Source: Escherichia coli (GTDB lineage: Bacteria; Pseudomonadota; Gammaproteobacteria; Enterobacterales; Enterobacteriaceae). From it: a stretch of 64,000 nucleotides of DNA. The notes beneath the pieces were generated by a model, which was given only the letters and a program-made list of their open reading frames with translations, was not told where the DNA came from and searched no databases. The translations under genes were made by a program, and so were the position numbers. Position 1 is the first letter of the stretch. Every line of letters starts with the position of its first letter. Below, in pieces: positions 18,929 to 42,700 of the stretch. The DNA is taken from NCBI RefSeq assembly GCF_024700885.2, contig NZ_CP117016.1; one strand, written 5' to 3'.

Positions 18929-19393
<465 letters not shown>

Positions 19394-35418: not shown

Positions 35419-35503
35419 GCCGAAGTGGCGAAATCGGTAGACGCAGTTGATTCAAAATCAACCGTAGAAATACGTGCCGGTTCGAGTCCGGCCTTCGGCA
35501 CCA
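35419..35503 (+). tRNA. leuX: tRNA-Leu (CAA), complete, 85 nt with encoded CCA
   Basis: GCCGAAGTGGCGAAATCGGTAGACGCAGTTGATTCAAAATCAACCGTAGAAATACGTGCCGGTTCGAGTCCGGCCTTCGGCACCA. It has a long variable arm and anticodon loop TTCAAAA. Confidence 0.97.
35479..35503 (+). repeat. direct repeat copy 1 (att core inside leuX 3' end)
   Basis: GGTTCGAGTCCGGCCTTCGGCACCA, identical to 41077-41101. Confidence 0.95.
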
Positions 35504-36016
35504 AGTCACTAAATTCCTTACAATACAGGTAGTTAGACAATAAAATCTGTCTCTTTTGCCTGTAAGAAATGCTCTGTTATGTCCCTTGAAAAAGCCGCTG
35601 TGGTTGATAGTGGTAATTGGGATGTTAACTCATAGCGGCGTGTAGTTCCAAGCGTCAAACACGTACTGACTCAACTTGAAAGCTATGACGTAGCCACTGT
35701 CTCTAAACAATCCCAAAAACTTTTAGTGAAGCGCATTTTAGCCCGATGCCCCCGTTCTGCCGCTGTCGCGAGACGCCGCAGGGGATAAACAGGTTTATGG
35801 TGGTCACGGTACTTGCAGACCATATGCAAGCTCTGCCAGCGGTTCGGCCTCGCTCCCCTTGGGTACATGGTCATCCTGATAAGCCTCACTAACTGACATA
35901 ACTGTGATGTAGTCGCCAGAGGCTCCGCTTGTTGTCTTACCACCAACGGGGCTTTATGGATTCTATTGCGGTATGTTTGAAAGTGCGCGGGGGTTCATTC
36001 CCGCGCGTCCGGCGCT

Positions 36017-36931
36017 TTATGGTAAGTATTTAAGTATTTCTGCTGCCCAGTTTACACGGTGGATGACACGGGCATGGTGCAAGTTTCCGTCTAGTATTTC
36101 GGCTTTAGTTAGCTGGGATAACTGCTGCCAATTATTGTTAAGTATATAAGTTGCGTTATTACATTGTGAGCTTTCTAGCACGTAAATGTTTTGGCCTGTG
36201 AACCCAAATATCACGTAGCCTTGGAACCCAGCTTGCCCAACCGCTACGAAATCTGGTTTTTTACTATTGATAAGTTCAAGTCTGCCTTCAACAACAGCGG
36301 TATTGCCCTTTCCCCTGATCTTAATAGCTGAAAGGATTTTTGAGCCGATAGTACTCCAAGGCTGTTGACCCTGAGGCAGGAGGCTCCAGTTTAGTTTTAT
36401 AGATTTACTTTTAACGATGGTATTAAGTTGGTCGTCAACAGTTTCGCACAACCCAAAAAGCTCTAAAAAAAGATTAATGCAGTGAGCCACTAACTCTTTG
36501 TTGTTAGCTGTCAAACTTAGCTTTGGAGAGATGATCAACTTCTCCCCTTGAAGATTCTCTACAATCTTTAACTCTATGCTTGGTGGAGGGGTGAGGATTC
36601 TCTTGTAGCGCTTATACTCAATTTCACGAGTGTCAGTAACTTCTTGAGTTGCGCCCCCTCCGATCCATTGCTTTCTAGTCCATGAAATTTGTCTGTATGC
36701 AGTTTCTTTAGGTGCTGTTTTGTCAGGTACTGATTTGCCATTAGCATTGAATCTGGTTATTGGCCCTAAAATCTTGGGGAGGACTTCTTCACCTAAAGCT
36801 CTTTGACTTGAGAAACCAATAGAGTCCGTTTTCCCCGCATCTGGCAAAGAATGTGCAATGTAGATATCACGGCCATCAAAGTTAGGTATGTAATTATCAA
36901 TATTTCGAATACGCTTTTTCTGAATAAGCAT
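36017..36931 (-). CDS. orphan 304-aa protein, no family recognised
   Basis: Long AT-rich ORF with SD AAGGAA 7 nt upstream of the ATG. A GCGCGGG..CCCGCGC hairpin lies after the stop. No motif that I can assign. Confidence 0.75.
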   Translation of the reverse strand: MLIQKKRIRNIDNYIPNFDGRDIYIAHSLPDAGKTDSIGFSSQRALGEEVLPKILGPITRFNANGKSVPDKTAPKETAYRQISWTRKQWIGGGATQEVTDTREIEYKRYKRILTPPPSIELKIVENLQGEKLIISPKLSLTANNKELVAHCINLFLELFGLCETVDDQLNTIVKSKSIKLNWSLLPQGQQPWSTIGSKILSAIKIRGKGNTAVVEGRLELINSKKPDFVAVGQAGFQGYVIFGFTGQNIYVLESSQCNNATYILNNNWQQLSQLTKAEILDGNLHHARVIHRVNWAAEILKYLP

Positions 36932-37062
36932 GGATCGTTCCTTTTGATTTTATCTTACTGTTTACATAACCAACCAAGCCGGGCACAATCGAGCCGTTAG
37001 AAACGATAGTGAGGCTAACAATCGTTATGAGTTTGCAGACTCATGGCGGTCATGCTTCATAG

Positions 37063-37094
37063 ACCGGATTCACGCAGGTGACTCCGGTTTTTTT
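37063..37094 (+). terminator. strong plus-strand rho-independent terminator with no upstream plus-strand ORF
   Basis: ACCGGA-T-TCAC GCAG GTGA-C-TCCGGT followed by seven T. The opposite strand lacks a U-run. Confidence 0.7.
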
Positions 37095-37787
37095 ATGCCC
37101 ATCATTTATACATGAGCACAACATATAGGGTGTGTTAATAAGATTACCCCCTACATGTTCAGCATTCTAGTTAGGATTCTTTGCAGTACAAGGGGTGATT
37201 TTGAGGTTAAATTGAGGTTGTCAAAGGGAAATTTCGACCAACCCTACGTGCCGTAAGGCTTAGGCTGTATGTCAATGTTTCAGAAAAAAAATGAAAATTT
37301 GATCGAGTGCTGATTTCTTTAGCACGAGAACATGAGATCGAACCAAAATATTGCAAAGTTTTGAACAAAACTTGAGCTGCCTCGTGTCTCCATAGCCAAG
37401 ACGAATGCAGTTTAAATAAGCTAAGTCAGCTCTCAAAAGTCCTTTATGACCCGAACCAAAAATTGTACCTCTTAAACCCCCACCGCAAGCGGCTCTCCGG
37501 GGTTTGTGCGCGTGGAGTAATGCGATTGTACTGGGTATGTGCGCACAACCCTCTACAAGCCGCATTCTACCGTTAGCCTATAGCTGAATCCCCGGCTTGA
37601 AAAATTGCACGCTTATGGTTGCCCCTCCCTCAACTGTATAGCTCGCCCGCGCCCCCGTGCGCATGTGCGTGCCCGCGCGTCAGGGGTCGCTGAGAAAACC
37701 CTAAGATTTTGCTCATCCGAGACAACCGTTGCAGGCGCGCGTTGCCGGGGCACACTGTTAGTGTTTGATGGTGTCATCAATCGACCG

Positions 37788-37884
37788 TTTTCTGGCACCT
37801 CCCAATCGCACGCTTTCACACTGTTGGAAAAATAGCCTTGGCTTTTCTGGCAGGCCATCCTAATGTTGGCCTCGTTTTCTGGCA
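37788..37884 (+). promoter_or_regulatory. three direct copies of TTTTCTGGCA upstream of the recombinase gene
   Basis: Copies at 37788-37797, 37843-37852 and 37875-37884. Copy 2 sits in the imperfect palindrome GAAAAATAGCC-TT-GGCTTTTCTG. Confidence 0.4.
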
Positions 37885-37906
37885 GGGGTCAGATGGGGAG
37901 ATAACA

Positions 37907-38467
37907 ATGGCAACTTTTGGCTACGGACGTGTTTCGACATCGCAGCAGGATACTGAGAACCAACGGCTGGAGCTTGGGCAGGCTGGGTGGCAAATTGATT
38001 ACTGGTTTGCCGATGTTGTTAGCGGGAAGGTTCCGGCAATGCAACGTAAAGCATTTTCTGAAATGCTCAATAAAATCCGCGATGGTGAAACGTTGGTGGT
38101 AGCGAAGCTTGATCGTCTGGGGCGTGATGCGATTGACGTCCTGCAAACGGTAAGGGCGCTGGCTGACCGTAATATCAAGGTTCTTGTCCACCAGCTTGGT
38201 AACACAGATCTCACTTCTGCCGCTGGGAAGTTGCTATTATCTATGCTCGCCGCGGTTGCGGAGATGGAGCGTGATCTGCTGATTGAGCGCACTCAGGCGG
38301 GACTATCACGAGCAAAAGCCGAAGGTAAGAAATTGGGCAGACCTCCTAAAATCGCGTCAGAAGCCCGTAGAGAGATTTTAGAGAAAAAGAATAGCGGTTT
38401 GAGTATCAGTGCGTTAGCGCGTCAATATGGCGTTTCAAGAGCGACTGTAGCAGCTATTACCGATTGA
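37907..38467 (+). CDS. small serine recombinase (resolvase/invertase family)
   Basis: Start at MATFGYGRVSTSQQ (catalytic Ser motif) with SD GGGGAG upstream. Contains DRLGRD and the C-terminal HTH GLSISALARQYGVSRATV. 186 aa. Confidence 0.9.
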   Translation: MATFGYGRVSTSQQDTENQRLELGQAGWQIDYWFADVVSGKVPAMQRKAFSEMLNKIRDGETLVVAKLDRLGRDAIDVLQTVRALADRNIKVLVHQLGNTDLTSAAGKLLLSMLAAVAEMERDLLIERTQAGLSRAKAEGKKLGRPPKIASEARREILEKKNSGLSISALARQYGVSRATVAAITD

Positions 38468-38480
38468 ATATGGAGAGTTT

Positions 38481-39326
38481 ATGGCTTACACAGCAACTGT
38501 TATCCCTGTAATGATTGCTTCTCCTGGTGATGTCGCTGAAGAGAGACAAGTCATTCGTGAAATGATCCATGAGTGGAATGATATAAATTCAGCTCGTTCA
38601 AAAGTAATGTTGACACCAATTGGATGGGAAACTCATACATCACCCGAATTAGGAGTTAGGCCTCAGAAGTTGATTAATCAAAGATTATTAGTAGATTGTG
38701 ATTTATTAATCGGTGTGTTTTGGACTCGTCTAGGCTCACCGACTGGGAACGAGGCCAGCGGAACAGTCGAAGAAATCCACCGTCATTTGAATGCGGGAAA
38801 ACCGGCAATGATTTACTTTTCCTCAAAGCCTGTTGCCCCTGAAAGCCTTGATAGAGAACAATATGAGTCTCTTAAATTGTTCAAAACTGAGTGCATGCAA
38901 AAGGGATTGATAGAGTCTTTTAATGACTTATCTGATTTCAAAGACAAAGTCCGTAGGCAACTTTCGATAATTATTTCTAGTAGCCCTTATTTGTCTTCTC
39001 TTATATCTACCATTAACAATTCTCCTGATGCGAATACAAGTCAATCTTTGCCAGAAAGTAATTTGTCCGCCGATGCACTCAGTTTGCTGAAATTGGCATG
39101 TGTCGATGATAGCGGAACAATTTATGTGATAAGGCATTTAGGTGGCACGGATATTCAAGCGGGAAATCAATCCTTTGGTGGAAGTTCGGCTAGAGAGGTA
39201 GCCCGTTGGGAGGGCGCACTTAACGAACTGTTATCCTTTGATTATGTGATTGAAAGAGGGGCAAAAGGACAAATGTATTATGTTACTCATAAAGGCTGGA
39301 CATTTCTTGAATCTTTAAATGAATAA
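38481..39326 (+). CDS. DUF4062 / TIR-like (nucleoside 2-deoxyribosyltransferase-like) N-terminal domain protein with an unknown C-terminal domain
   Basis: N-terminal VMIASPGDVAEER ... CDLLIGVFWTRLGSPTG..ASGTVEEIHRHLNAGKPAMIYFS matches my memory of the DUF4062 pattern. Lies 13 nt after the recombinase stop with SD GGAGAG upstream. Confidence 0.6.
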   Translation: MAYTATVIPVMIASPGDVAEERQVIREMIHEWNDINSARSKVMLTPIGWETHTSPELGVRPQKLINQRLLVDCDLLIGVFWTRLGSPTGNEASGTVEEIHRHLNAGKPAMIYFSSKPVAPESLDREQYESLKLFKTECMQKGLIESFNDLSDFKDKVRRQLSIIISSSPYLSSLISTINNSPDANTSQSLPESNLSADALSLLKLACVDDSGTIYVIRHLGGTDIQAGNQSFGGSSAREVARWEGALNELLSFDYVIERGAKGQMYYVTHKGWTFLESLNE

Positions 39327-39360
39327 TTAAATGCGAGGCCATTACATAAGTTTATTTTTG

Positions 39361-39390
39361 ATGTGAGGGTGAATTCCCTCACATTTTTAT
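39361..39390. terminator. bidirectional terminator between convergent genes
   Basis: ATGTGAGGG-TGAATTC-CCTCACAT hairpin with T-runs on both sides. Confidence 0.7.
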
Positions 39391-39881
39391 TCGAAAGAGG
39401 CCGCAATGACTTCTCCTGTTTTTGCGTTGAAAACACAAAAGTATTGAAGCGGAGCTAGCATCCCCAAGCCGTTAACTACCTTAGCTTGTTGCCCAAATGC
39501 CTGAATAATCTTCGCATTCTCATCGTGCCAGAGATAAGTATTAAATACAGGCGCTTCGCTTTCTTGCCACACATGGCGAAACTTCGCTTTCTCATCCATT
39601 ACCTTTTTGCACTCCCTGACCGGGTTATGGTGCGTTTTCGCATAGCATTCCGGGTTGTCATCTGCACATACGATATCTTTTCGTGCTGTCTGATGCTCAG
39701 CACCTACAGCAGAAAAGGCGCATACGCCCAGCACCAATGAGAGAGTGCCCAGAGCACCCCATACAGTTGCGCGTAGCGTGCTGATGTGCTGCTTTGATAC
39801 AGCATGGGCAACTACACTATAACTGGCCCAGCTAATCGCGGCTCCCGCTGCAATCGGTAGTAAAAAGTCTGCTCCCGTCAT
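39387..39881 (-). CDS. small membrane protein (2 predicted TM helices plus a Cys-containing soluble domain), unknown function
   Basis: Start chosen at MTGADFLLPIAAGAAISW with SD GAGGGAA upstream. A second hydrophobic stretch is VWGALGTLSLVLGVCAFSAV. Confidence 0.65.
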   Translation of the reverse strand: MTGADFLLPIAAGAAISWASYSVVAHAVSKQHISTLRATVWGALGTLSLVLGVCAFSAVGAEHQTARKDIVCADDNPECYAKTHHNPVRECKKVMDEKAKFRHVWQESEAPVFNTYLWHDENAKIIQAFGQQAKVVNGLGMLAPLQYFCVFNAKTGEVIAASFE

Positions 39882-39941
39882 GATTCCCTCACTTTCCAAA
39901 CCACATCGCGCCTGATAGCGAACGCTGGTGACGCCCAACCG

Positions 39942-39955
39942 ATGATGATCATCAT
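39942..39955. promoter_or_regulatory. perfect 14-bp palindrome in the divergent promoter region (candidate XRE operator)
   Basis: ATGATGATCATCAT (contains GATC), about 60 bp upstream of the 2-TM gene start. Confidence 0.4.
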
Positions 39956-40121
39956 ACTTGTTGGGTTTTAAATGTCACCATTGGTGTTTGTTTTGAATCA
40001 AAAAGGATTGTCATGATACAGCCGATGAATGCTAGTGACTAAGCTCGCTGACGTGAGATTGGATTCAAAATATCTCATATGGAGCGTGGCCTTACAGTGG
40101 TCAAAATTGCACATTCAGTGC

Positions 40122-40586
40122 ATGAAAAAATCCCTGAGAATACAGTTTGGCGAGCGGGTAAAAGAACTGCGCATTGCCACCGGATTGAGCCAGGAGGCCT
40201 TTGCCGATCGGTGCGGGTTTGCACGTAGTTATATGAGCAGAATTGAACGTGGTGGCTCTAATGCGTCTCTGGATGCGATTGAGGTGCTGGCTAACGCTCT
40301 GAGCGTTGAGCCGTGGCAGTTGTTAGCGCCTGGCCCATCTGAAGATAACGACTCGGAACTGTTGGTTCCATACGCAGCCGATGGTTCCTGTTTTCACCCC
40401 GGTTTGGCGAGCACCCGTGATGGCTCGTTTGGCGTAGGTGATAAAGCGGCTCAGAAGCGTTTTGGCACGTTTGCTGAAGCTCTTGAGTATCTTCGTAGCA
40501 TGGAGACAGCAAAATGGCGTAGGCCTAATCCTAGCGGCAACTGGGGTATCGTATCAGCGGTTCGGTGGGACAAACTGAGAAAGTAG
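40122..40586 (+). CDS. XRE-family HTH regulator with an approximately 85-aa C-terminal extension
   Basis: MKKSLRIQFGERVKELRIATGLSQEAFADRCGFARSYMSRIERGGSNASLDAIEVLANAL is a canonical Cro/C1 HTH. The start is uncertain: there is no clear SD, and an alternative start lies at 40029. Confidence 0.75.
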   Translation: MKKSLRIQFGERVKELRIATGLSQEAFADRCGFARSYMSRIERGGSNASLDAIEVLANALSVEPWQLLAPGPSEDNDSELLVPYAADGSCFHPGLASTRDGSFGVGDKAAQKRFGTFAEALEYLRSMETAKWRRPNPSGNWGIVSAVRWDKLRK

Positions 40587-40709
40587 CTCAAGTGTAAGTT
40601 TATGAATTTTCATGCTGTATGGATGAACAGTATTCATTAGATGCTGATAGTCTTATGTTTCATCAGCCCTTTGTTTCTATAAGAGTGAATAAAACAGCAA
40701 AATGCGGGT

Positions 40710-40739
40710 GCGTTACGTAGGCGTTACGGTGGCGTTTCG
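40710..40739 (+). repeat. three iteron-like GCGTTWCG repeats with 11-bp phasing
   Basis: GCGTTACG at 40710 and at 40721, and GCGTTTCG at 40732. Confidence 0.6.
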
Positions 40740-41076
40740 CTTTGGCTCTTAATGGCTTAATTCATATAAATAACATTGAGTTAAATAGTTATTCTGAACA
40801 AGGTCTGCCGGGGTCTAACTGGTTTCAAAATCCGAACGCAGTGGCGTTTATTCAACGTCCACATAGCTGACAAATGTTCTTTCCTCCCGACTCGGCAGAC
40901 CTCCAGAAACATTAAAAGGCAGGTATGGCACGTTGATGTTTTATGCCGCCACGAACACTCGGTTTGATTCCGTCCAGCGGATCAAACTTAATATGTAGCC
41001 CCTAGAACAAAAAGGTCCTACGATTGCTCTCTTAACAGCTAACAGGAACGTGATTACAGCAGGTTATAGAGACTTA

Positions 41077-41101
41077 GGTTCGAGTCCGGCCTTCGGCACC
41101 A
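41077..41101 (+). repeat. direct repeat copy 2 (leuX 3'-end remnant)
   Basis: GGTTCGAGTCCGGCCTTCGGCACCA with no tRNA body upstream. Confidence 0.95.
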
Positions 41102-41114
41102 AAAGTATGTAAAT

Positions 41115-41287: not shown

Positions 41288-41734
41288 ATGGCATTAACAG
41301 ATATCAAAGTCAGAGCAGCCAAGCCAACGGATAAGCAATATAAGCTGACTGATGGTGGCGGTATGCATCTGCTTGTCCATCCAAATGGTTCTAAGTACTG
41401 GCGTTTGCAGTACCGTTATGAGGGAAAGCAAAAAATGCTGGCACTTGGGGTTTATCCTGAAATCACACTAGCGGATGCCAGAGTACGTCGTGACGAGGCG
41501 CGTAAGCTGCTTGCGAATGGCGTCGATCCGGGAGACAAAAAGAAAAATGATAAGGTTGAACAGAGTAAAGCACGAACCTTTAAAGAAGTCGCGATTGAGT
41601 GGCATGGCACCAATAAAAAGTGGTCTGAAGATCACGCCCATCGTGTGCTAAAAAGTCTTGAAGATAATCTTTTTGCAGCGCTTGGTGAACGTAATATCGC
41701 TGAGTTAAAAACTCGAGATTTATTAGCACCTATT
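41288..41734 (+). pseudogene. intB: P4-type tyrosine integrase, N-terminal approximately 149 codons only
   Basis: MALTDIKVRAAKPTDKQYKLTDGGGMHLLVHPNGSKYWRLQYRY... is the conserved P4 Int/IntB N-terminus. Similarity stops after ...KTRDLLAPI, and no catalytic R..HxxR..Y domain follows. Confidence 0.85.
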
Positions 41735-42359
41735 GTTCCTTTAACCATCCGCAATGGCCAACGGTTTACAGAGCATAATACGAATAGCCGTAGAGCCAGC
41801 CAGTTACGGTGGTCGCGATGGTGTGTCCGCCAGAAAATCACCACGAATACCAGAATCGCGGCACTGACCAGAAAATGATAAACAGGAAACACGGGGAGGT
41901 TCACTTTGCTTTCTCCTGTAGTATTTTCTGTAGGTTCTGAACCGGTTCGAGCGGGGTTGTGAGGCTGATGGCAATCCCCGGGCTCTTCCTGCATGTTACA
42001 CTGGTACTGCAACAGGGGGCCTTCGCTCCTATGACATTACTCAGTATTTTCACTACTACACCCCATCTGCCATCCATAACAACCGATTCACCCCCTCGGG
42101 AGGCGTTGTTGCCCGTCACCCGGACAGGCATCGTTATGGACTTCTCTTGTTGCACGATCGATCAATTGTTATGCATGCTGACACCACTACCCCGGTGGGT
42201 ATGACCGATGCCTTTCTCACTCTCTTCCCGGTCATCGTCGGCCTTCCCCGTTATTGTGGCGTGTCGGCACCATCGACGGCATTTCGATGGCTGCTCAGTG
42301 TTCACTCACGTTACGGCCCGCATAACCCATTGACTTCCTGAAGAAGTCGTTTCAGGGAG

Positions 42360-42700
42360 AGATTCAGCCCTTTTGTTACCTCCTGGACCGCTTCCTGTCC
42401 TTCCAGTTGGAGCGAGAGTTAGTCGGGGCGGACTTTCACCGACGGAAAGATCGTGCATTTCAAGGCACACACAACAATATCTGCGAGCGTGCTATCCGTC
42501 CGGTCGTTATGGGACGAAAGGCCTGGTTGTTCGCTGGTTCACTGATGGCCGGGAACCGAGCGGCACAGATAATGAGCCTTCTGGAAACAGCAGTCTGGAG
42601 CCACATGCTTGGCTGACGGACGTCCTAACGCGTCTGCCCGGAGTGGCCGGAGGAGAGGTTGGCAGAGTTACTGCCTCTTGAGGGCTTTACCTTCTTTGGG
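42360..42700 (+). pseudogene. IS66-family transposase (TnpC) C-terminal remnant, frameshifted
   Basis: One frame reads NNICERAIRPVVMGRKAWLFAGS...AAQIMSLLETA. A second frame reads EPHAWLTDVLTRLP. Confidence 0.75.

Follow-up and report, generated by a model that had tools for sequence, protein, structure and literature searches.

What is the GC-rich, gene-poor block that interrupts the intergenic DNA in front of the small serine recombinase gene of the leuX island in Escherichia coli? The locus is a segment of the E. coli chromosome around the tRNA-Leu gene leuX, within a stretch of 64,000 nucleotides (nt) of contig NZ_CP117016.1, assembly GCF_024700885.2, which we refer to as the window. An earlier note, made from the letters alone, had pointed to about 300 bp (37480-37790) and had offered three readings: a structured non-coding RNA, a recombination or regulatory region of the adjacent recombinase, or a decayed fragment of foreign origin. 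The comparisons reported here make it likely that the block is the genome-end (packaging or processing) region of a phage-satellite-like island, copied from its presumed helper, the J8-65-like podophages (Bonnellvirus, Autographiviridae). Of the three readings the last came closest: the origin is foreign, but the block is a conserved cis-element of the island and not a decayed gene or insertion sequence (IS).

Homology of the block to Bonnellvirus genome ends

The compositional contrast described by the earlier note holds: GC content is 57.6% in 37480-37790 and 40.7% in the remaining intergenic region (36932-37479), and it peaks at 72% in 37630-37690, the run that the note had quoted. Comparison with related loci and with phages divides the block into the following parts.

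37475-37589 (no strand assigned): module 1, an optional satellite-specific element with an imperfect hairpin at 37489-37563 (locus comparison)
37590-37629 (+): core, homologous to the unique sequence directly before the right-hand Bonnellvirus terminal repeat; ends in the conserved CCTCCC
37630-37690 (+): homologous to the opening 50-60 nt of the phage direct terminal repeat (TCRAC...CCCCCGTRCGC...GTGCGC), from alignment with J8-65, megetsur and Kc261
37691-37764 (+): variant-A spacer, found elsewhere only in intact variant-A satellites, e.g. those of E. coli S1 and Enterobacter intestinihominis
37765-37785 (no strand assigned): inverted repeat TTGATGGTGTCATCAA, the first GGTGTCATCAAT site of the satellite-type recombinase operator, which holds the fusion junction discussed below (three-way alignment)

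A 45-bp invariant core, CCCGGCTTGAAAAATTGCACGCTTATGGTTGCCCCTCCCTCRAC (37590-37634), is common to all satellite-type loci and near-invariant in those among the 50 contigs compared. It is followed by GC-rich tails of several variants, all of which keep a CCCCCRTG motif. Within the 64-kb window the core gave a single match, and no match was found in 100 shuffles. Homologues were surveyed by exact 19-mer scans of genomes and metagenomes, which added five further species genomes (three species of Enterobacter, Kluyvera and Trabulsiella) and about 40 metagenome contigs, plus a few chance matches within an unrelated gene. The same exact scan of IMG/VR returned no matches, because the phage copies differ from the 19-mer at one to three positions.

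Phage homologues were found by BLAST against 50,697 phage records (2.3 Gb), in which the core matches 11 podophage records and three P2-like records. Nine of the podophages are Bonnellvirus, seven by record taxonomy and two, altidsur and mellemsur, by placement in published work; the other two records are Ec1-ASingh and SS-2025. The named matches include megetsur, aldrigsur, altidsur, mellemsur, Lidtsur, Kc261, ROV85 and BHUENT7. Window positions 37590-37634 are 89-91% identical to aldrigsur, altidsur, mellemsur and Kc261, and the longer interval 37590-37669 aligns to the phage set at 78.8% over 80 nt (E = 3e-7 in 2.3 Gb). Annotation was read for five Bonnellviruses; in these, about 45 bp separate the endolysin gene, the last of the late genes, from the core, which sits in a 1.4-kb non-coding stretch ahead of the first early gene. 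Two podophages have an annotated open reading frame (ORF) shortly after the core, and this ORF overlaps the conserved non-coding region.

The position of the core relative to the phage ends can be read from J8-65, the type Bonnellvirus (NC_025445), for which 259-bp direct terminal repeats (DTRs) are annotated at 1-259 and 40723-40981. The core aligns to J8-65 40683-40722, abutting the annotated repeat_region 40723-40981. The J8-65 genome begins TCGACCCGAAGGAGCGCCTGCGCCCCCGTACGCCTGTGCGCG..., reading TCGACCC from nt 1 onward, and the sequence that precedes the right-hand repeat is ...CCCGGCTTGAAAATTGACTATTTGTGCGTGGGCCTCCC; the core homologue stops exactly where the repeat starts (...GGGCCTCCC|TCGACCCGAAGG, the second part being genome nt 1). 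The boundary motif CCTCCC|TCRAC falls at 37629|37630 of the window, as CCTCCC|TCAAC; CCTCCCTCGAC is present in six of six Bonnellvirus loci, and CCTCCCTCAAC in the window. Beyond the boundary, window 37630-37690 aligns to J8-65 nt 1-60 and 40723-40780, and the GC-rich run GCCCGCGCCCCCGTGCGCATGTGCGTGCC... that had caught the earlier note's attention is homologous to the sequence with which the phage chromosome begins. The J8-65 DTR has a GC content of 67.6%, compared with 55.7% for the whole J8-65 genome, which accounts for the compositional contrast of the block.

The three P2-like matches are R18C, twice, and P2-EC53. In these the core is partly degenerate and lies in the Z/fun hotspot (L060 4291-5121 in R18C; the Z-region of L061 in P2-EC53), directly upstream of a gene designated ORF1. 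The ORF1 product is 85% identical to the protein encoded by the cargo gene next to the core in E. coli E2348/69. Most simply, the P2-like copy of the core would have hitch-hiked with the cargo gene, and the joint presence of cargo gene and core in R18C and P2-EC53 indicates that cargo is exchanged between the satellite hotspot and the P2 hotspot.

Intact satellite-like relatives

The 601 bp around the block are intact in 89 of 5,426 complete E. coli genomes. The core is present in some form in about 147 of the 5,426, the window-type relic in about 90, and a second segment shared with phages, described below, in about 53. Pieces of the block recur in other islands (37475-37637 in locus L002, 37556-37637 in L008, 37588-37803 in L003 and 37591-37739 in L004), and in other E. 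coli they are found only between variable cargo and a serine recombinase, in tRNA-adjacent islands. The comparison with other sequences that the earlier note had proposed as a check placed the block in other islands and at phage genome ends.

Loci L002, L003, L004 and L008 share a layout: a tRNA gene (leuX or glyU), variable cargo (restriction-modification (R-M) genes, DUF3800, unknowns), the block, the serine recombinase, a 1.2-kb gap, a DEAD/DEAH helicase, small ORFs, a capsid protein, HNH, an endonuclease and an integrase (-). The element of E2348/69 (L009) is about 15 kb long and lies between leuX and a 31-bp repeat of the leuX 3' end, which is found just beyond the integrase gene. Matches to PHROGs identify in it a DNA invertase, a helicase, a major head protein (PHROG 267, 3e-64) and an endonuclease VII, and the RefSeq annotation adds an HNH protein; genes for terminase, portal or tail proteins are absent from the annotation of this element. 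Such an anatomy is that of a phage satellite. The E2348/69 relative has its own integrase and attachment (att) repeats, which the window island does not combine, and a partial set of virion genes with helper-related parts is present in the family, of which the window keeps only the cis-element.

The best phage match of the E2348/69 head protein is Bonnellvirus forsur (56% identity), and all 753 of the 753 matches listed are Autographiviridae-type podophages. Direct comparison of the E2348/69 element with Kc261 matched, in addition to the capsid gene and the core, a second non-coding segment of 180-210 bp between recombinase and helicase (L009 13707-13911): it is 83% identical to Kc261 41317-41520 and 96.6% identical over 179 bp to megetsur (L062 4422-4598). 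In J8-65 it corresponds to nt 380-560, 120-300 bp to the right of the terminal repeat. It holds an inverted repeat, GTATC-TAGC-GATAC, and the string TATCACTATAG. Because the core and the second segment match the two sides of the J8-65 repeat, the satellites carry copies of both of its flanks.

Module 1 is found in about half of the related loci, immediately left of the core; in one (L023) inserted DNA splits the two. A search for it in phage genomes found nothing, and it is absent from J8-65 and Kc261. An inverted homologue of window 37490-37565 lies in the intergenic DNA upstream of the satellite capsid gene (L009 ~19215-19285), which suggests a regulatory role shared by both copies; module 1 may be an operator, a promoter or an untranslated-region element.

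The hybrid island in the window

The gene order in the window is ahr (-), leuX, orf304 (-), a 975-bp non-coding stretch (36932-37906) that contains the block, and the serine recombinase gene. To the right of the latter follow a DUF4062 protein, a small ORF (-), an XRE-type helix-turn-helix (HTH) protein and a truncated P4-type integrase. The features that define the island are listed here.

35419-35503 (+): tRNA-Leu(CAA) gene leuX, whose 3' end is the left attachment repeat of the island (ARAGORN and Rfam)
35504-35968 (no strand assigned): left arm of a satellite-type island, non-coding (comparison with L009)
36017-36931 (-): orf304, a variable cargo gene (ORF list)
37786-37906 (+): promoter/operator region of the window recombinase (direct repeats D4 and D5; hexamers read from the sequence)
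37907-38467 (+): small serine recombinase with a Resolvase N-terminal domain and HTH_7 (Pfam PF00239, 8.8e-37; PF02796)
41077-41102 (no strand assigned): 26-bp exact direct repeat of the leuX 3' end, an attR-like right boundary (blastn-short)
41288-41878: truncated P4-type integrase, beyond the 26-bp repeat (annotation, Pfam)

The island of 5.6 kb (35504-41076) is closed by the 26-bp repeats, and neither the ORF list nor the annotation of the island shows an integrase gene in it. Its left arm is 97% identical over 465 bp to L009 9442-9905, the DNA directly after leuX in the E2348/69 element. Searches of Pfam and PADLOC gave no match for orf304, the position of which is occupied by R-M, DUF3800 or other genes in related islands.

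The right-hand part has another source. Up to 37783 the block is 95-98% identical to intact variant-A satellites such as that of E. coli S1, and from 37775 on the window is 98.5% identical to a different type of leuX island (L005/L007). The fusion junction lies at 37779-37785, where the window follows L003 through ...CATCAATCG and L005/L007 from ACCGTTTTCTGG; it falls at equivalent positions of both recombinase-upstream regions, which share only 2-5 bp of identity there. Positions 37775-37910 occur without the block in about 400 E. coli genomes (L005-L007), which are 98% identical to the window over 37786-37906, and the window recombinase is 99.5% identical to the L007-type enzyme and 47% identical to that of the satellites. 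Missing from the window island are the helicase and capsid genes, both integrases and the second phage-like segment. The end of the block is a recurrent exchange point, since in contig L046 this end is joined to another part of an L005-type island.

Judged by these comparisons the window element is a relic, a 5.6-kb hybrid that lacks an integrase and combines the left arm, cargo and block of a satellite with the recombinase module of another leuX island. It could have arisen if tandem integration of a satellite and an L005-type island at leuX was followed by deletion of the DNA between their two recombinase-upstream sites, perhaps in a reaction catalysed by the recombinases.

The L005-L007 islands (e.g. 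UTI89, L006 1-9780) are a second island family, found at leuX and beside thrW. They contain a 636-aa integrase, NIPSNAP, variable cargo (in one example an AAA ATPase and a UvrD helicase), the window-type recombinase, DUF4062 and an HTH protein. As in the satellite-type islands, the variable cargo is bordered by the serine recombinase.

Upstream of the window recombinase gene, three direct TTTTCTGGCA motifs (at 37789, 37843 and 37875) flank a promoter-like pair, TTGGCT-17-TAATGT, and are probably autoregulatory or res-like binding sites. Satellite-type recombinases have GGTGTCATCAAT repeats at the equivalent positions. Nearly every true locus has a serine recombinase gene 270-550 bp downstream of the core and in the same orientation. 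The recombinases that adjoin it fall into four subfamilies with only 26-47% mutual identity, and since the core is near-invariant beside all four, it is not the recombinase's own site. A long repeat partner of the block, whether inverted or direct, was not found in the island. An invertible segment was also considered and rejected: there are no convincing inverted repeats around the cargo, and matches of 13 nt and 20 nt are at chance level. The suggestion of a recombination or regulatory region thus applies to the last ~25 bp (37765-37790) and fails for the rest of the block.

Folding and coding tests of the block

The repeats from which the earlier note had drawn helices lie where it placed them: GGGTTTGTGCGC at 37500-37511, GCGCACAACCC at 37541-37551, CCCCGG at 37590-37595, ACACT-GTT-AGTGT at 37752-37764 and the TTGATGGTGTCATCAA inverted repeat at 37765-37780. 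The further claim that the block as a whole forms helices fared less well. Its RNA folding energy does not differ from that of dinucleotide shuffles beyond chance (z = +0.22 on the plus strand and -1.29 on the minus strand), and only the first helix, which extends to a hairpin with 23-nt arms at 37489-37563, is marginally unusual (z = -2.34; 4 of 200 shuffles were equally good). Among 17 distinct homologues of this hairpin the covariation score was 0.090, compared with 0.087 in shuffles (166/500), and the single variable pair is broken in nine and compensated in three; covariation, which the note had named as a check, lent this hairpin no support. The hairpin arms are two copies of the palindromic motif GTGCGC(AC), which occurs four times in 300 bp at the block, its densest cluster in the window. 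The apparent helix may reflect these repeated palindromic sites.

Rfam, the other check proposed, found nothing in the block at E<=1 in a scan of the window region, nor in the block homologue of an intact satellite and of J8-65. RNAalifold predicted no consensus pairs on either strand for ten diverse core-plus-tail homologues from satellites and phages. With no Rfam match, excess stability, consensus pairs or covariation, the proposal of a structured RNA is not supported. Scans for sigma-70 promoters and terminators showed no promoter-like or terminator-like site inside the block, and a Pfam search of the three ORFs within it gave no match. Sigma-54, sigma-E, Xer/dif-like and P2 late-promoter motifs, compared with the core by eye, did not fit and were dropped.

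A small ORF that begins MVAPPSTV... in the core was rejected as a gene. It has no ribosome-binding site (RBS); codon 9 is a stop in the window, as in variant A generally, Kc261 has lost the start codon, and the changes in variant B are mostly non-synonymous. In variant B and C tails, which the window does not have, an ORF of 48 codons (MVAPPSTVKASTSPVRLSQPKAGRAVYRF..., e.g. L009 12025-12171) begins inside the core. Neither the window variant nor the phages share this ORF. Of 21 distinct variant-B/C sequences 17 keep it open, with 24, 7 and 21 variable sites at the three codon positions, and the same stretch contains a hairpin with two pairs compensated between variants B and C. A coding role for this ORF is unlikely.

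We also rejected the end of an IS or of a miniature inverted-repeat transposable element as the identity of the block. Across 147 genomes the number of places per genome has a median of 1 and a maximum of 2, and no transposase is adjacent. The block was never found on plasmids in the E. coli genome set, and its sole hit in PLSDB is a chromosome-sized record of 4.9 Mb.

Other features of the locus

A better candidate for a small RNA than the block lies 400 bp to its left, at 36961-37096 (+), with the transcript part at 36996-37096. A promoter-like TTTACA-17-CACAAT at 36961-36989 is followed by two hairpins and a putative Rho-independent terminator, ACCGGATTCACGCAGGTGACTCCGG then T7 (37063-37096). 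The predicted fold has an energy of -41.8 kcal/mol (z = -5.40), which none of 200 shuffles equalled. A copy with 74% identity in another island, beside a 185-aa tyrosine recombinase (L071), keeps the -35 and -10 hexamers and preserves both hairpins through compensatory changes. The candidate is present in about 96 E. coli genomes, and 36996-37096 has no match in Rfam. A possible convergent small transcription unit lies at 37283-37436 (-), with a promoter-like TTGAGA-16-TAAACT running from 37436 to 37409; on the minus strand of 37283-37345 a hairpin, GTGCT...AGCAC, is followed by a T-run, and this part is strongly conserved, including in L071.

Directly 3' of the recombinase gene, orf281 (38481-39326, +) has a weak match to DUF4062 and also matches the N-terminal part of PDC-S60, a candidate defence protein in PADLOC (1.3e-26). 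The HTH protein at 40029-40586 resembles control proteins of the R-M/CapH type. Downstream of the island, surrounded by IS and integrase remnants, is a fragment of a group II intron at 42306-42445 (-) (Rfam RF02003, domains D1-D4, 66 bits).

Proposed mechanism and rival explanations

Work on phages T3 and T7 has defined cis-elements on both sides of the terminal repeat. Replication of a J8-65-like phage would produce a concatemer with one copy of the DTR per junction, and terminase would cut it at the repeat boundaries. In T7-like concatemers terminase cuts at specific sites and the second copy of the repeat is synthesised (PMC10438801). By analogy with the cos sites of P4 and P2, the terminase of the presumed Bonnellvirus helper would recognise a satellite at its copied end sites, cut it there and package its DNA, possibly into capsids that contain the capsid protein encoded by the satellite. 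The block would then act as part of a packaging signal.

From this follows a wider proposal, which we consider a serious possibility without quite leaning toward it. A family of ~15-kb satellites of Enterobacteriaceae for which we found no description (at leuX or glyU in E. coli, and represented by related loci in Enterobacter, Kluyvera and Trabulsiella) would parasitise virulent Bonnellvirus by means of copies of both DTR flanks and a podophage-type capsid protein of its own. The window copy would be a decayed member, and its orphan site might still be recognised by the terminase of an infecting phage, as a decoy or as a packaging start for neighbouring leuX-island DNA.

Several facts count against a packaging origin of the block. 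The boundary is taken from the GenBank annotation of one phage, J8-65, and not from sequencing reads. Window 37591-37677 and the J8-65 junction are 71% identical over 87 nt, and the other Bonnellviruses, 79-91% identical to the window, are without annotated ends. The circular record of BHUENT7 and the papers on Kc261 and the 'sur' phages give no information on termini. Tails of variants B and C have no counterpart in the phage collection. The two phage-like flanks stand ~1.7 kb apart in satellites, with the recombinase between them, compared with ~0.35-0.4 kb in phages, and the core also occurs in the Z/fun hotspot of P2-like phages, where a podophage packaging signal has no obvious use. Finally, a literature search, itself incomplete, found no description of satellites of Bonnellvirus, J8-65 or other Autographiviridae, and hence no independent confirmation.

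The homologies that point to a packaging site would be the same if the block served another end-associated function of the same element, such as replication priming, pausing or termination of a phage RNA polymerase, or sensing of helper infection, and not terminase cutting. T7-like concatemer junctions do combine several cis functions, and TATCACTATAG in the second shared segment, as read from the alignment, resembles promoters of the T7/SP6 type. Yet the most invariant residues lie exactly at the annotated repeat boundary, which fits a cut site best, and CACTATAG cannot be the promoter consensus of Kc261 because it occurs only once on each strand of that genome. We think such a function unlikely. 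A phage RNA-polymerase promoter as the identity of the core itself was rejected, the core being found in one place per phage record. It is still less probable that the core is a functionless linker at the edge of a cargo hotspot, spread by homologous recombination that swaps cargo among satellites, P2-like phages and podophages. The core does form the right edge of the variable cargo in satellite-type loci, mosaic breakpoints cluster at its left end, and it moved into the P2 Z/fun hotspot with a cargo gene whose product is 85% identical. This explanation, however, does not account for a core that abuts the terminal repeat in lytic podophages, for the presence in satellites of the other repeat flank at 96.6% identity, or for 40 bp that are near-invariant across genera beside diverging neighbours.

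The two remaining explanations are those closest to the first two readings of the earlier note. A res/hix-like recombination site or a regulatory region of the adjacent recombinase would suit the position of the block, which has a co-oriented gene for a small serine recombinase 270-550 bp downstream, and its right end (37765-37785), where one GGTGTCATCAAT site of the satellite-type recombinase coincides with the island fusion junction. We hold it to be very improbable: the gene-proximal motifs switch with the recombinase subfamily (GTGTCATCAAT as opposed to TTTTCTGGCA) while a single core stands beside four divergent ones, the island offers no long repeat partner, ~400 genomes have the recombinase and its upstream region without the block, and phages without any recombinase have the core. 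Least credible of all is a structured RNA or small protein encoded by the block. The marginal stability of the 37489-37563 hairpin, its one compensated pair (T:A to C:G in 3 of 17 homologues), the two compensated pairs in the variant-B/C tail hairpin and the 48-codon ORF of those tails, which shows fewer changes at codon position 2, speak for it. They are outweighed by the unremarkable folding of the whole block, by covariation at shuffle level, by the missing support from Rfam, Pfam and RNAalifold, by the lack of promoter-like and terminator-like sites within the block, and by an ORF that in the window ends at codon 9 and has no RBS.

Significance

That a satellite may carry the DNA-end site of its helper is an established principle (P4 and P2; cos-type Staphylococcus aureus pathogenicity islands, SaPIs). 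To our knowledge, the well-studied enterobacterial satellites all exploit temperate helpers with cos or headful packaging, and we know of no satellite of T7-supergroup phages, which are much used in therapy cocktails. If the proposal is correct, molecular piracy extends to the terminal-repeat packaging mode of a virulent T7-supergroup phage, and the new elements would be the virulent DTR podophage as helper, the copying of two flanks and the accompanying capsid gene. CCTCCC|TCRAC would then be a directly testable cis-site.

The packaging-site interpretation would also explain the "orphan" non-coding, GC-rich blocks that form a class at the leuX defence-island hotspot and that about 147 of 5,426 complete E. 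coli genomes carry, and it makes their annotation as RNA genes inadvisable. For the window itself the conclusion is a modest one: horizontal transfer left the block behind as a relic, which is most likely inert.

Comparison with known systems

The closest parallel is the cos site of P4, copied from its helper P2. In both cases an integrated element carries a short non-coding near-copy of the DNA-end site of a helper, the remainder being unrelated, and P4 shares the leuX site in relatives of E. coli K-12. P4 also keeps a hotspot of variable (defence) cargo, as the satellite described here does (PMC9122126). P4 differs in that its site corresponds to the cohesive (cos) ends of a temperate myovirus and in that it encodes no capsid protein homologue, whereas the satellite has the DTR boundary of a virulent T7-supergroup podophage, copies of two flanks and a podophage-type capsid gene of its own; its packaging role is proposed from homology.

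The concatemer junction of T7-like phages, represented by J8-65, is homologous to the window on both sides of the left boundary of the right-hand DTR, and the GC-rich, GTGCGC-rich composition of the J8-65 repeat is found in the window too. Unlike the phage junction, the window copy is chromosomal, lacks the remaining part of the repeat and the right-hand flank, and has a recombinase gene next to it.

Phage-inducible chromosomal islands (PICIs), capsid-forming PICIs (cf-PICIs) and cos-type SaPIs resemble the intact relatives in size (~10-15 kb), in their location at tRNA or att sites, and in having an integrase, a replication module, cargo and a packaging site compatible with a helper. The cf-PICIs also make their own capsids, but they encode terminase, portal and protease and have temperate siphovirus helpers, whereas the elements described here encode a capsid homologue only, together with HNH, EndoVII, a DEAD/DEAH helicase and a serine recombinase, and their presumed helper is a virulent podophage. 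The res sites of the Tn3 family and the hix and gix sites of invertases are similar in that repeated motifs before the recombinase gene overlap its promoter (37786-37906). In the window, however, these motifs lie outside the GC-rich block, which is without a partner site and does not co-vary with the recombinase.

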